NCBI RefSeq assembly: GCF_001458695.1
Contig: NZ_LN885086.1
Coordinates: 2,760,001-2,792,000 of the forward strand
Length of the DNA stretch: 32,000 nucleotides
Origin: Candidatus Nitrospira inopinata
GTDB lineage: Bacteria > Nitrospirota > Nitrospiria > Nitrospirales > Nitrospiraceae
Direction of reading: 5' to 3'
The notes under the pieces are model-generated. The model worked only from the letters and a program-made list of their open reading frames with translations, was not told where the DNA came from and did not search any database. The position numbers and the translations under genes are program-made. Positions 23,384-32,000 of this stretch are shown in pieces; position 1 is the first letter of the stretch; the number at the start of each line of letters is the position of its first letter.

Positions 23384-23618
23384 TTCAATGGCTCTTCAAT
23401 GACTCTCCCTGGCACCGCCGTAGCTCGATTGGCCGGTCATCCTGCTCGGTTGATGATCGGCCCAAGCCCGACGGGGCGACACAAGACCAACGCCGTTGAC
23501 AACGCACCGCCTTTGCTCAACAATCCCGCCGTCGTCGAGGATGGTCGAGAGCAAGACGGCAACCCCGACCCGCACAGACTCTCTCTCTTGTTGCGTACTG
23601 ATTGTGGAGCGTCGCGAC

Positions 23619-25307
23619 ATGCCTCAAAAGAAAAACCAGCCGAAGAGTCCATCATCTGCCGGCGCCACCGTCGGCTACGAAGCCGAGCTGTGGAAAATGG
23701 CCGACGCCCTGCGCGGCTCGATGGACGCCGCAGAGTACAAGCACGTCGTGCTCGGGCTGATCTTCCTCAAGTACATCTCGGATGCCTTCGAGGAGCAGCA
23801 CGCCAAGCTCGAAGCCGAGCGCGCGCGGGGCGCGGACCCTGAAGACCCGGATGAATACCGCGCGCACAACATCTTCTGGGTTCCGCCCGAGGCGCGCTGG
23901 GCGCGCCTGAAGTCGCAGGCCAAACAGCCCACCATCGGCCAGCTCGTGGACGACGCGATGGCCGGCATCGAGCGCGACAACCCGGCGCTCAAGGGCGTGC
24001 TGCCCAAGGACTACGCCCGCCCCGCGCTCGACAAGACGCGGCTCGGCCAGCTCATTGACCTCATCACCAACATTAAGGTCGGCGACGAGGCTGCTCGCGC
24101 CAAAGACGTCCTCGGCCGTGTGTACGAGTACTTCCTCTCGCAGTTCGCGAGCGCCGAGGGCAAGAAGGGCGGCGAGTTCTACACGCCGCGCTGCGTGGTC
24201 AAGCTGCTAGTCGAGATGCTGGAGCCCTACCACGGCCGGGTGTATGACCCCTGCTGCGGCTCCTCGGGCATGTTCGTGCAGTCGGTGGAGTTCATCCGCG
24301 CGCACGCGAACGGGAACGGCAATGGCGGCAAGACGGCCAAGGGCGCGAAGGGGGGCTCGAAGCCCGACATCTCGATCTACGGCCAGGAGTCGAACTACAC
24401 CACGTGGCGGCTCGCCAAGATGAACCTCGCCATCCGCGGCATCGAGGGCCAGATCGCGCACGGCGACACCTTCCACAACGACCGCCACCCCGACCTCAAG
24501 GCCGACTTCATCCTCGCCAATCCGCCGTTTAACGTCTCGGACTGGGGCGGCGAGCGCCTGCGCGACGACAAGCGCTGGAAGTACGGCGTGCCGCCCGTGG
24601 GCAACGCCAACTTCGCCTGGGTGCAGCACATCGTCCATCATCTCGCGCCCGCGGGTGTGGCCGGCTTCGTGCTCGCCAACGGCTCAATGTCGTCGAACCA
24701 GTCCGGCGAGGGCGAGATCCGCAAGAACCTGATCGAGGCCGACCTCGTCGACTGCATGGTGGCGCTGCCGGGTCAGCTCTTCTACTCGACGCAGATTCCC
24801 GCGTGCCTGTGGTTCATTGCCCGCGACAAGCGCGGGCAACCCTCACCCGCCGCTTCGCGTCACCCTCTCCCACTGGGAGAGGGAAGGGGTGAGGAGCCTG
24901 CCCATCGCCTGCGAGATCGGCGAAAGGAAGTTCTCTTTATCGATGCCAGGAAGATGGGCAGGCTGGTGGACCGCACGCACCGCGAGCTCACCGACGAGGA
25001 CATCGCCCGCATCGCCCGGACCTACCACGCCTGGCGGGGCGAAAAAGACGCGGGCGAGTACGCCGACGTGCCGGGCTTCTGCAAGAGCGCCACGCTGGAG
25101 GAGATCCGCAAGCACGGCCACGTGCTCACGCCAGGCCGCTACGTCGGCGCCGAGGCGCAGGAAGACGACGGCGAGCCGTTCGACGAGAAGATGAAGCGGC
25201 TCACCGCGACGCTGCGAGAGCAGCAGGCCGAGGCCGCGAAGCTGGACAAGACCATCGGACGGAATTTGGAAGAACTGGGGTATGGACTGCGAGACCCTGA
25301 AGTTTAG
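23619..25307 (+). CDS. hsdM: Type I restriction-modification methyltransferase subunit HsdM
   Basis: ATG at 23619 follows GTGGAG. HsdM_N region [35 protein letters not shown] motif [12 protein letters not shown] and catalytic NPPFN. Contains an in-frame repeat insertion at 24841-24894. Confidence 0.95.
24841..24894 (+). repeat. Nested palindromic element (copy 1), in frame inside hsdM
   Basis: Outer arms CCTCACCC / GGGTGAGG enclose a 9-bp stem CCCTCTCCC-ACT-GGGAGAGGG. It is 54 nt (18 codons) and encodes [18 protein letters not shown] in a loop that HsdM proteins normally lack. Confidence 0.8.
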
Positions 25308-25563
25308 CCGTCACGCGCTCGAACGCATGTTTGAGCGACGGATCTCGGAGCCCGAGGTGGAGGAAGCGGTGCGTAACGGTGAGGTCATCGAGGAATATTC
25401 TGAGGACACGCCATACCCCAGTCAGCTTTTACTAGGGTGGTTCGGGGGCCGACCGCTGCACGTCGTGGCGGCGTACGATCCCGGAAGCGGAACGTGTGTG
25501 GTGATAACGGCGTATGTTCCGGATGCAACGCAATGGAACGAGGACTTCAAGACAAGGAGATGA
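25282..25563 (+). CDS. DUF4258-family putative toxin
   Basis: 93 aa: [23 protein letters not shown]...[11 protein letters not shown]...VITAYVPD..W. Its ATG sits in the GGGTATGG box that normally provides the hsdS start. Confidence 0.7.
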
Positions 25564-25565
25564 GC

Positions 25566-29578: not shown

Positions 29579-30480
29579 AGCCTGTTTCCGCAATCGTCAT
29601 TTACGAAGGCGAAAATGCCCGCGTCGAGGTGCGCATCGAGCATGACAACGTCTGGCTGAACCTGCAACAGGTGGCGGACCTGTTCGGTCGCGACAAGTCG
29701 GTGATCTCGCGGCATCTGAAAAACATCTTCGACACCAAGGAGTTGGAGCGCGACTCAGTTGTTGCAAAAAATGCAACAACTGCCGCCGATGGCAAGACCT
29801 ACCTCGTCGATTACTACAACCTCGACGCCATCATTTCGGTAGGGTACCGGGTCAACTCCACCCGTGCCACCCGCTTTCGCCAATGGGCCACGCGCGTGCT
29901 GCGTGAGCATCTGACAAAGGGATACACGCTCAACCGTCAGCGCTTCGAGCAAAACGCTCGGGAACTGGAAGCCACACTGGCGCTGGTGCGCAAGGCCGCA
30001 GCCGGCGAGGTGTTGACGACCGATCAAGGGCGCGGGCTGGTGGATATTATCGCCCGCTACACACAGACCTTCCTCCTGCTGCAGCACTATGACGAGGGGC
30101 TGCTCGCCGAGCCGAAGGGCGTGCCCGGTGGCGTGTTGCCAACGGCACAGGTGGCGCGCGCCGCGATCGCGCGGCTCAAGGCCGAACTCATCCAGCGCGG
30201 CGAGGCGAGCGAACTGTTCGGCCGCGAGCGGGACAACGGGCTTACCGCGCTACTCGGGAATCTGGACCAGACGGTGCTCGGCGCACCCGCGTACCCGACC
30301 ATCGAATCGAAAGCGGCGCACCTTCTGTATTTCGTGATCAAGGACCACCCGTTTGTCGATGGCAACAAACGCATCGGCTCGTTCTTGTTCGTCGAATTTC
30401 TGGACCGCAACGGCCGCCTCTTCCGCGACGGCGAACCGGTGATCACGACATGGGGCTGGCGGCGCTCGCGCTGCTGGTAG
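29575..30480 (+). CDS. RhuM-family N-terminal domain fused to a Fic/Doc domain; 3' frameshift
   Basis: The RhuM-like N-terminus is [27 protein letters not shown]...[25 protein letters not shown]. The Doc-type Fic motif is [11 protein letters not shown]. After about 30447 the adjacent frame reads [33 protein letters not shown] and ends at 30548. Confidence 0.8.
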
Positions 30481-30550
30481 CGGAGTCCGCCCCCAAGGAC
30501 AAGGAGATAATGATCCGCCTCGTGATGAACATGCTCGCGGAGTCGTAGCC

Positions 30551-32000
30551 GTGACCGCTTTCACCGAATCCACTGTCGAAGCAGCCGCCCTCGGCTGGCT
30601 TGAGAGCATCGGCTGGCGGATCGCCCACGGCCCGGACATATCGCCTTCCGGCGATACCCTCACCCTAGCCCTCTCCCAGCGGGAGAGGGAACATTACGGC
30701 GAGGTGGTCCTTGCCCAGCGGCTGCGCGACGCGCTCGCCCGGCTCAACCCCACGTTTCCCGCCGAGGCGCTGGAAGACGCGTTCCGCAAGCTCACTCGGC
30801 CCGAAGGCGCGGACCTGCTCCAGCGCAACCGCGCGCTGCACCGGCTGCTGGTGAACGGCGTGACCGTCGAGTACCGCACGGCAGGGGGCGAGGTCCGCGG
30901 CGCGCAGGCGCGGGTCATCGACTTCGACACCCCAGACAACAACCACTGGCTGGCGGTGAACCAGTTCTCGGTCGTGGAAAACAGGCACTCGCGCCGGCCT
31001 GACGTGGTGCTCTTCGTCAACGGCCTGCCGCTCGCGGTGATCGAGCTTAAGAACCCGGCCGACGAGGACGCCACCATCTGGAGCGCCTTTCAGCAGCTCC
31101 AGACCTACCAGGCTGAGATTCCCTCGCTCTTCGCGATGAACGGCGTGCTGGTCGTCTCCGACGGCGTCGAGGCGCGCGTGGGCGCGCTCGGCTCCGGGCG
31201 GGAGTGGTTCAAGCCCTGGCGCACCATCACGGGGGCGGACTTTTATCCTTCTCCGTCACCCTCACCCCGGCCTGACGTCCACCCCTCTCCCAGTGGGAGA
31301 GGGGACGGGGGTGAGGGATTCCGGCTTTTGCCGGAATTGCAGGTCGTGATCGAAGGCATCTTCGCCAAGCGGCGTTTCCTCGACCTGGTGCGCGACTTCA
31401 TCGTCTTCGAGGACGACGGCAGCGGACGGCTCGCCAAGAAAATGGCCGGCTACCACCAGTTCCACGCGGTGCAGGTGGCGGTGAGGGAGACGCTGCGCGC
31501 TGCGGAGCTGGCGCGCGCGGATCACGTGGCCGAGGAAACCGGGCGCTATGAGGCAGGGCGCAAACCCGGCGGCAAGCCCGGTGACCGCCGCGTGGGAGTG
31601 GTCTGGCATACCCAGGGCTCGGGCAAGAGCCTGACCATGGCCTTTTACGCCGGACGCATCATCCGCGAGCCGGCGATGGAAAATCCGACAATCGTGGTAC
31701 TCACCGACCGCAACGACCTCGACGACCAGCTTTTCGGCACCTTCTCGCGCTGCCAGGACCTCCTGTGCCAGCCGCCGGTGCAGGCGGAAAGCCGAAAGCA
31801 TCTGCGCGAGCTGCTGTCAGTGGCGGCCGGCGGCGTGGTGTTTACCACCATTCAGAAATTTTTGCCCGACGTAGGGGCGGACCAACGTGTCCGCCCAACA
31901 GAAGGGCAGGCACAAAGGCATGCTACGTTATCGAACCGGCGCAACATCGTGGTGATCGCCGACGAGGCGCACCGCAGCCAGTACGACTTCATCGACGGCT
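30551..32000 (+). CDS. hsdR: Type I restriction enzyme R subunit HsdR (3'-partial, runs off the window)
   Basis: Hand translation from GTG 30551 (GGAG 8 nt upstream) shows no stop up to 32000. The N-terminus is [19 protein letters not shown]. It has a PD-(D/E)xK nuclease region ([18 protein letters not shown]), Walker A TQGSGKS and motif [12 protein letters not shown]. It is absent from the ORF track because it is open-ended. Confidence 0.92.
30626..30735 (+). repeat. Direct repeat B (partner of 29396-29505)
   Basis: See repeat A. Contains the hairpin at 30669-30689 and encodes [36 protein letters not shown]. Confidence 0.85.
31259..31337 (+). repeat. Nested palindromic element (full copy 2) plus adjacent hairpin, in frame inside hsdR
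   Basis: Outer arms CCCTCACCC (31259-31267) / GGGTGAGGG (31309-31317) enclose CCCCTCTCCC-AGT-GGGAGAGGGG. ATTCCGGC-TTTT-GCCGGAAT follows at 31318-31337. Together they encode [28 protein letters not shown]. Confidence 0.8.
31871..31926 (+). repeat. GTAG-headed REP-like doublet (degenerate second half), in frame inside hsdR
   Basis: GTAG then GGGCGGAC-CAACGT-GTCCGCCC, followed by GGGCAGGCAC...GCTAC. It encodes [19 protein letters not shown] just before the DEAH box and has the same architecture as 27429-27499. Confidence 0.65.

Follow-up and report, generated by a model that had tools for sequence, protein, structure and literature searches.

The 32-kb window analysed here (32,000 nt of Candidatus Nitrospira inopinata, NCBI RefSeq assembly GCF_001458695.1, contig NZ_LN885086.1, positions 2,760,001 to 2,792,000 of the forward strand; coordinates without a contig name refer to this window) contains a Type I restriction–modification (R-M) operon whose hsdM, hsdS and hsdR genes are separated by four blocks of cargo and by partial copies of the hsd gene ends. 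All four blocks lie between hsdM and hsdR, and every gene is on the + strand. The methyltransferase subunit gene hsdM (23619-25307, with the start taken from a 562-residue JGI gene call; Pfam PF02384 N6_Mtase, E 1e-104, and PF12161 HsdM_N, E 6e-29) is followed by block 1, comprising a DUF4258 putative toxin (block 1a, 25282-25563; Pfam PF14076, E 7e-26) and a YgiT/MqsA-type zinc-ribbon putative antitoxin (block 1b, 25560-25790; TIGR03831, E 7e-13), then by a 37-codon mini-open reading frame (mini-ORF) that repeats the live hsdM 3′ end (the hsdM-tail relic, 25800-25913) and by the specificity subunit gene hsdS (25903-27150). The hsdS–hsdR slot holds a RAYT-like Y1 transposase (block 2, 27147-27773; Pfam Y1_Tnp, E 1e-6); a 42-codon copy of the hsdR head without a tail (relic 1, 27761-27886); an AAA_14/DUF4143 ATPase (block 3, 28005-29321; DUF4143 E 4e-45, AAA_14 E 6e-23); an 86-codon chimeric mini-ORF with repeats to both the hsdR head and the hsdS tail (relic 2, 29318-29578; mini-ORFs of this kind are called stubs below); and a RhuM-Fic/Doc gene (block 4, 29575-30548, as ORFs 29575-30480 and 30450-30548; RhuM E 4e-23, Fic E 1e-12). 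hsdR itself starts with GTG at 30551, fills the window to 32000 and ends at ~33847 in the source contig (TIGR00348, E 3e-85).

Judged by its predicted domains, the locus is a Type I R-M operon with complete HsdM, HsdS and HsdR domain sets: hsdS encodes two target-recognition stretches (Pfam PF01420 Methylase_S), with the PADLOC Specificity_I model covering residues 1-411 (E 5e-82), and the full HsdR in the source contig is a 1098-residue protein with HSDR_N, ResIII, SWI2_SNF2, T1R_D3-like and T1RH-like_C domains, its TIGR00348 score of 287 bits lying slightly over the cutoff of 284.55. The genes are tightly packed, with ATGA overlaps at 25560-25563, 27147-27150 and 29318-29321, a GTGA overlap at 29575-29578, a 26-nt overlap of hsdM with the DUF4258 gene and an 11-nt overlap of the hsdM-tail relic with hsdS; the DUF4258 ATG has exactly the same placement with respect to the hsdM tail as the hsdS ATG (GGGTATGG). 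A perfect 18-nt palindrome, GGCGAATCATGATTCGCC, covers the hsdS stop and the RAYT start (27139-27156). An earlier note on this DNA had described this gene order, the three relics, the 4-nt overlaps, and the nesting of cargo within one co-oriented, translationally coupled Type I operon, all of which were recovered at the same coordinates from the ORF listing, domain scans and junctions. Its count of four cargo blocks holds inside the window, but a fifth follows hsdR outside it, where a second AAA_14/DUF4143 gene (32% identical to the first) lies ~90 nt beyond hsdR (contig L002, 18658-19791); the core genes (ADH_zinc) that come after this gene indicate that the island reaches beyond the window.

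The relics are recognisable as hsd termini, each giving a significant tblastn match to a live end (E 2e-12 for the hsdM-tail relic, 7e-19 for relic 1 and 4e-18 for relic 2). Repeat finding at the nucleotide level aligned the hsdM-tail relic with the live gene over 87 nt at 75% identity (25820-25906 against 25199-25285), the head of relic 2 with hsdR at 84% (29330-29505 against 30560-30735), relic 1 with both other heads at 76% (27773-27855), and the tail of relic 2 with the end of hsdS at 73% (29492-29547 against 27061-27116). Fourteen of the 24 codons that differ between the hsdM-tail relic and hsdM do so synonymously and 10 non-synonymously, and the synonymous share indicates that the relic diverged while within a working gene; relic 2 and hsdR differ by 12 synonymous and 13 non-synonymous codons. 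Relic 2 is also a mosaic, with its first 70 nt 59% identical to hsdR (29 differences) and the next 116 nt 94% identical (7 differences), the maximum chi-square breakpoint falling near 29391 (permutation p<0.0002); gene conversion of stubs from live genes is suggested by this mosaic. Logan contigs L004, L005, L009, L013-L018 and L020 end ~135 nt into relic 2 (29318-29455), at the point from which its identity to hsdR rises to ~94% and where the repeat breaks short-read assemblies.

Relic 1 resembles a foreign relic more closely than it does its neighbours. It matches a longer hsdR-head relic from Methylomirabilota (L021:9223-9330) at 85% over 108 nt by blastn, and in an 87-nt matrix of heads it is 82% identical to that relic and 72% to the window's own heads. 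More generally, the heads of one locus tend to be alike. The Methylomirabilota relic likewise lies upstream of a DUF4143 gene, the two DUF4143 proteins being 64% identical, so relic and cargo together resemble a module common across phyla; in the window the two are separated by a spacer of ~120-190 nt, depending on the DUF4143 start chosen. Repeats of 83-176 nt at 75-84% identity, with codon-structured differences and a mosaic, are not target-site duplications, and the earlier proposal that the duplicated ends are scars of recombination between different Type I loci is supported by this range of identity, by the mosaic and by the foreign-like relic 1. Tandem duplication within one operon is disfavoured, since the cargo on either side of a stub differs in every locus inspected.

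In relic 2, an hsdR 5′ head is fused in frame to an hsdS 3′ tail, and the sequence at the join, CTGCGCGACGCG, is identical in the stub (29492-29503), in hsdS (27061-27072) and in hsdR (30722-30733); the microhomology exists because the end of HsdS and the start of HsdR both encode the motif LRDAL (27061-27075 in the hsdS C-terminal tail, 30722-30736 in hsdR). LRDAL is present in both the resident hsdS tail and the resident hsdR head in most of 13 loci examined, and its two coding sequences match at 13-15 of 15 nt in most of 10 loci compared, with exact runs of 4-12 nt. A less frequent second join uses a shared AAL (TESTVESAAL joined to RDALLPKL, in L060 and L068), and among the matches to a stub profile the chimeras P0065, P0169 and P0182 join at other positions again; differing junction positions point to independent events.

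Stubs of this design recur widely. Used as a protein query, relic 2 retrieved 61 short HsdR-head ORFs (55-150 residues), several of them head::tail chimeras, and a profile built from seven stubs, searched against 1.84 billion cluster representatives, gave 4456 matches, the best 150 of which were all short. At least 37 protein clusters (at 50% identity) with members of 70-95 residues span both head and tail, most with the LRDAL join. A degenerate DNA pattern for the junction VVLxxRLRDALLP, applied to one-genome-per-species contigs and to metagenome contigs, found genuine junctions in four of eight genome matches and in 27 of 29 metagenome contigs, the rest being chance matches. The loci belong to Nitrospirota, Methylomirabilota, Chloroflexota and Alphaproteobacteria; among PLSDB plasmids, tblastn with a stub gave one weak and uninformative case, on a Roseomonas plasmid whose locus is decayed.

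All contigs of sufficient length show hsdS, cargo, stub, cargo and hsdR in that order on a single strand. A chimeric mini-ORF of 75-86 codons separates consecutive blocks of the hsdS–hsdR slot, and chained genes either share 4 nt or 1 nt at their stop and start codons or lie <20 nt apart. The Methylomirabilota locus reads hsdS, SIR2_2, DUF87 ATPase, stub, a PDC-M14-like gene, the long head relic, DUF4143, hsdR; a metagenome contig reads hsdS, KwaA, KwaB, Abi_C, stub, AAA_13, hsdR; and an Alphaproteobacterial metagenome-assembled genome (MAG) begins with hsdS, Abi_C and a stub. Two stubs occur within one slot in an Anaerolineaceae MAG (hsdS, AAA_13 of PDC-S06, stub, a deaminase/HATPase_c_4 protein, stub, RhuM-Fic of PDC-S23, hsdR) and in a 3.35-Mb Chloroflexota chromosome (hsdS, PtuA-like ATPase, stub, DUF2806, stub, then a 317-residue protein with TIR and 8xMP, hsdR). 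Overlaps were counted from 34 distinct stubs: of 28 evaluable stub stops, 22 share 4 nt and three share 1 nt with the ORF downstream; of 31 stub starts, 19 share 4 or 1 nt with the ORF upstream, and the remaining 12 are separated from it by 2-18 nt or overlap it by 13 nt.

In the hsdM–hsdS slot the retained piece is the hsdM 3′ tail. A search with a 40-residue hsdM-tail query retrieved 379 short ORFs (31-70 residues), several with unrelated N-termini fused immediately before (A)TLREQQ, and the breakpoints spread over about ten codons, which fits independent illegitimate joins. Four of five distinct contexts inspected place the tail between cargo and hsdS, as in a Rhodocyclaceae locus (hsdM, Fic, tail, hsdS, with DUF4143 and RhuM-Fic between hsdS and hsdR), in a locus of the form X, tail, hsdS followed further on by ThsA and ThsB, and in one reading hsdM, ORF6N, tail, YhcG nuclease, hsdS; the fifth (L036) is merely a decayed hsdM. 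Both slots are occupied in GCA_039794225.1 (hsdM, SLFN/HATPase_c_4, short hsdM tail, Fic, hsdM tail, hsdS, PDC-S19, stub, PDC-S14, hsdR), which carries two hsdM-tail relics and one stub, with a 4-nt overlap at every junction. In some metagenome loci, relics made up of an hsdS tail without a head were also seen between cargo blocks (L067:376-447, L068:5490-5573, L069:1124-1207).

The cargo consists mostly of defence families already known as embedded genes (PDC-S01, PDC-S23, Kiwa, SIR2). In the window, the DUF4143 ATPase corresponds to PADLOC candidate PDC-S01 (E 2e-164) and RhuM-Fic to PDC-S23 (E 1e-114), while the DUF4258/zinc-ribbon pair and the RAYT gene have no PADLOC match; the related loci hold PDC-S02, S06, S14, S19, Kiwa, SIR2 and TIR. 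The DUF4258 and zinc-ribbon ORFs form a putative type II toxin–antitoxin pair, the latter scoring 25.6 bits (E 2e-6) against the full MqsA model, for which the curated cutoff is 61.8, and showing in domain scans a YgiT zinc ribbon only, with no helix-turn-helix. The RAYT-like ORF has an HIH motif within PNHIHGII and scores 29.2 bits against Y1_Tnp (cutoff 23) and 57.9 bits against NCBIfam REP_Tyr_transpos (cutoff 80). Both it and RhuM-Fic/Doc had been listed among the cargo, and both genes are present; the first, however, is REP (repetitive extragenic palindromic)-associated transposase-like and not obviously a defence gene, and the second is frameshifted by a 1-nt deletion near 30441-30447 that detaches its last ~32 residues. 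Since the deletion is found in all three assemblies checked, it is a true frameshift or marks a pseudogene. A SIR2_2 and DUF87 ATPase pair followed by an hsdR-head stub was encountered in three loci (L021:4428-8004, L032:983-4571, L075:10166-13781), two of the three stubs beginning MTD(C/H)AFT, which suggests that this cargo and the head downstream of it move together.

A related Nitrospira sp. MAG (GCA_024331045.1, L028) occupies the same chromosomal site, with a left flank of core genes 92% identical to that of the window, and shows a different state of the slot: RAYT leads into one head::tail stub, behind which RhuM stands, and the DUF4143 block is missing altogether. Over its first ~43 aligned nt, which run from the RAYT 3′ end into the opening codons of the stub, the stub region agrees with relic 1, and from there on with relic 2 and hsdR; it is a hybrid head of the kind that two recombining heads would be expected to leave. 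The two Nitrospira loci differ in identity from block to block, from 85% in the hsdM 3′ half through 93% in RAYT to 97% from the stub to RhuM, against 92% in the flanking core genes, which suggests a mosaic history of the locus. Comparison of contigs L001 and L002 gave no sign of strain variation within the island, the two being identical and differing in gene calls only. The earlier suggestion that hsd termini act as homology arms for exchanging cargo gains indirect backing from the missing block, the hybrid head and the resemblance of heads within loci; as a refinement, the relic 2 join lies at a short in-frame LRDAL microhomology rather than in a long arm.

Taken with the recurrence, the explanation we favour, and hold to be probably correct, is that cargo blocks are chained through hsd-end adapters that combine translational coupling with head::tail joining at microhomology. 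Neighbouring genes in operons of this Type I family are translationally coupled through overlapping stop and start codons, and each block in the hsdM–hsdS slot is followed by a short copy of the hsdM 3′ tail with its native hsdS start overlap. Foreign blocks, most of them defence genes, occupy both slots. In the hsdS–hsdR slot, the unit that travels with each block would be hsdS tail, cargo and hsdR head, and chaining would take place when the hsdR head of one unit joins the hsdS tail of a unit from another operon, preferably at the 12-15-nt LRDAL-encoding microhomology and more rarely at AAL, with the other end of the incoming DNA fixed by homologous recombination within the long conserved body of hsdR, or of hsdM on the other side. 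We infer that the process is homology-facilitated illegitimate recombination, in which homology anchors one end of the entering DNA while the other is joined at a microhomology of a few bases, as occurs in naturally transformable bacteria. Because the LRDAL join is in frame, it would create an adapter ORF running from the upstream cargo stop to the downstream cargo start and passing ribosomes on, and the chain would stay coupled; selection for expression of hsdS, hsdR and cargo would then keep the adapter ORF open, and the repeated heads and tails would offer short homology for gain and loss of blocks and for gene conversion. The retained ends may thus preserve translational coupling, a possible reason for their persistence.

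Several observations weigh against this account. The evidence consists of recombination products, no event having been seen directly, and the predominance of LRDAL is partly circular, as the profile and the DNA pattern were both derived from LRDAL-type junctions; out-of-frame and other joins are under-counted because protein searches find in-frame chimeras only. Exact matches within the microhomology extend over just 4-12 nt; the adapter rule is not universal, since relic 1 lacks a tail and has a spacer behind it; and the model gives no account of how the first cargo entered a slot. Hot-spring stubs resemble one another more than they do their resident heads, and a single origin under purifying selection fits them at least as well as repeated formation does. 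As for the Nitrospira comparison, the DUF4143 difference can be read equally as an insertion or a deletion, and the contig of GCA_024331045.1 has a very low coverage of 1.48 and is otherwise rearranged, such that an assembly join could account for its hybrid head.

The strongest competing explanation, though we regard it as unlikely, is that the stubs and the hsdM-tail mini-ORFs are true small genes, expressed as micro-proteins under purifying selection that dock or tether defence proteins or tune the assembly of the Type I complex, with mimicry of the HsdR N-terminus or of the HsdS or HsdM C-terminal helices as their mode of action. Among 16 related hot-spring stubs there are 185 synonymous against 123 non-synonymous codon differences (60% synonymous, where 26% is expected at random), the variable sites fall on the three codon positions in the ratio 46:35:90, and the median ratio of non-synonymous to synonymous substitution rates (dN/dS) of 0.25-0.29 is similar to the 0.31 of functional hsdR heads; about 22 of 25 stubs are intact ORFs, and in several loci a stub is nearer to stubs elsewhere than to the resident head. 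The two Nitrospira stubs, with five synonymous and nine non-synonymous codon differences, are instead near neutral, so that dN/dS is ambiguous as a test of stub function, and the synonymous excess would also be expected if divergence preceded stub formation or if gene conversion refreshed the stubs from live genes; earlier divergence, gene conversion and selection on the peptide all fit the hot-spring data. Many stubs are moreover altered where real heads are invariant (for example AWPKAFGW and HLCDEP), the position of the junction differs among them, and AlphaFold returned no confident fold (pLDDT 60, pTM 0.32, from seven sequences only). A sequence search of the PDB with an HsdR fragment matched the helicase region of EcoR124I only, leaving the head without a structural match.

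Less probable still is that the relics are meaningless debris of several Type I operons decayed side by side in a defence island. Pseudogenes do accumulate in such islands, and signs of decay are at hand in the frameshifted RhuM-Fic, in the heavy deletion of the related Nitrospira MAG and in those short hsdM-tail ORFs that are pieces of decayed genes (L036 and the Roseomonas plasmid), but decay at random would not be expected to produce one and the same in-frame junction across dozens of lineages, the strict order from hsdS through stub to hsdR, one stub for each pair of cargo blocks, or 4-nt/1-nt overlaps on the downstream side in 25 of 28 cases and on the upstream side in 19 of 31.

We give little credence to movement of the cassettes by a dedicated site-specific recombinase or transposase recognising hsd ends, be it RAYT or an integron-like integrase. 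The idea draws on the RAYT gene in the hsdS–hsdR slot, on REP-like palindromes in hsdM, hsdR and relic 2, and on the integron-like appearance of cassettes with a repeated boundary. In other phyla, however, loci with the same grammar lack any RAYT, integrase or transposase in the hsdS–hsdR slot; the boundaries are coding chimeras with variable breakpoints rather than a fixed site; and the duplicated ends, at 87-176 nt, are long and diverged, which sets them apart from target-site duplications. The palindromes, for their part, lie off the block boundaries, and RAYT and REP elements were on these grounds rejected as the mover.

The palindromes form a pattern of their own. A 21-nt hairpin, CCCTCTCCCAGYGGGAGAGGG, with flanks CCTCACCC and GGGTGAGG, is inserted in frame within coding genes, and repeat and palindrome finding placed its four copies in the 32-kb window at 24841-24894 (hsdM), 29428-29459 (relic 2), and 30658-30689 and 31254-31324 (hsdR), all within the R-M island; the insert that it encodes in the HsdR head recurs, at an unchanged position, in heads of Burkholderiales, Nitrospiraceae and hot-spring contigs. 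At the hsdM site (24836-24900) the related MAG has another palindrome, GTAGGGGCGCGGCATGCCGCGCCCCT, in place of the CCCTCTCCC hairpin (L028:8715-8760), and REP-like inserts thus appear to have a hotspot at this coding position. Palindromes of a second type, GTAGGGGC...GCCCCTAC, occur as a doublet inside RAYT (27429-27499), once more at the RAYT 3′ end (27720-27747), and as a degenerate doublet in frame in hsdR (31871-31923), shortly upstream of the DEAH box region; further GTAGGGGC/GCCCCTAC half-sites are located in the window at 4207 and 11696, and the internal repeat of RAYT accounts for a 12-nt difference between the two Nitrospira.

That the repeated hsdR heads are an assembly artefact is scarcely credible: many short-read contigs stop ~135 nt into relic 2, where identity to hsdR rises, and the comparison loci are mostly metagenome assemblies, but the heads share no long exact repeat except ~100 nt between relic 2 and hsdR, a single-contig Chloroflexota chromosome of 3.35 Mb has the same architecture, and NCBI and JGI assemblies are concordant. 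The window is 100% identical to contig CZLC01000009.1 of NCBI GCA_001458715.1, the same 20-kb sequence is present in one NCBI contig and one JGI contig, the same gene layout is found on a 1.06-Mb JGI contig and one further JGI contig, and the 86-residue relic 2 ORF is recorded as a hypothetical protein on a 3.295-Mb Candidatus Nitrospira inopinata contig, agreement on the strength of which the chimera that the earlier note had allowed for was rejected.

The embedding of defence genes in Type I operons is itself well described, with prrC in EcoprrI and the rlo genes of Campylobacter as established cases, joined by TgvAB in Vibrio VPI-2 (PMC11411939) and by DarTG2 in enteropathogenic Escherichia coli, where the gap between hsdS and hsdR has been termed a 'potential recombination hotspot' (PMC12255303). 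A guilt-by-embedding survey reported 96.7% co-orientation and said of embedding that its basis 'remains to be explored' (Payne et al. 2024, bioRxiv 10.1101/2024.01.29.577857). The present loci share with those systems co-oriented cargo between hsd genes and the cargo families themselves (PDC-S01, PDC-S23/S05); the papers on them, however, treat the embedded genes only, and not retained hsdM tails, head::tail chimeric mini-ORFs, blocks stacked in series with one adapter at each junction, or a junction microhomology. No description of retained hsd ends, chimeric stubs or the junction motif was found in the full-text literature searched, outside which most subscription journals lie, in keeping with the earlier statement that no described mechanism covers hsd-end handles; while embedding is known, the adapter grammar and the mechanism that it implies appear to be new.

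Homology-facilitated illegitimate recombination likewise combines a long anchor (here the hsdR or hsdM body) with a short joint and adds foreign DNA, here with the variable hsdS kept; the difference is that in the present case it is read from its products and that a recurrent in-frame joint is kept as a coupled ORF. Integron arrays are similar in that promoterless cassettes, all facing one way and separated by a recurring boundary element, are expressed from one end of the series, but the boundary in the present loci is a translated chimera of host gene ends, and exchange would presumably proceed by general or microhomology recombination; no integrase was found among the called genes of the loci examined, nor the set of integrase, attI and attC by which integrons are recognised. 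Recombination in conserved regions of hsdS is known to reassort target-recognition domains in Type IC enzymes and in Xylella (bioRxiv 10.1101/2022.09.01.506293). There too, conserved hsd segments serve as crossover points for variable modules, but the swaps take place within hsdS, whereas here whole unrelated genes are added and duplicated ends are left behind. In EcoKI, hsdM and hsdS are known to be translationally coupled (PMC3510504), the hsdM stop overlapping the hsdS start; the hsdM-tail relic keeps exactly such an overlap (25903-25913), although EcoKI has neither cargo nor relic, and a coupling role for the present relics would follow by analogy.

New immunity genes are now being discovered through their embedding in R-M, BREX and similar operons, and the literature leaves open how genes come to be embedded and why their co-orientation and co-expression persist. 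The retained hsd ends offer a physical record of the joins, from which crossover sites and the microhomology used can be read, as well as a searchable marker of cassette boundaries that extends to cargo genes without known domains. Should the micro-protein reading prove true, the Type I operons of this family would be self-wiring cassette arrays. The adapter ORFs may keep long chains of unrelated genes translationally coupled, an idea open to testing, and the LRDAL motif shared by the hsdS tail and the hsdR head may make this Type I family prone to stacking.

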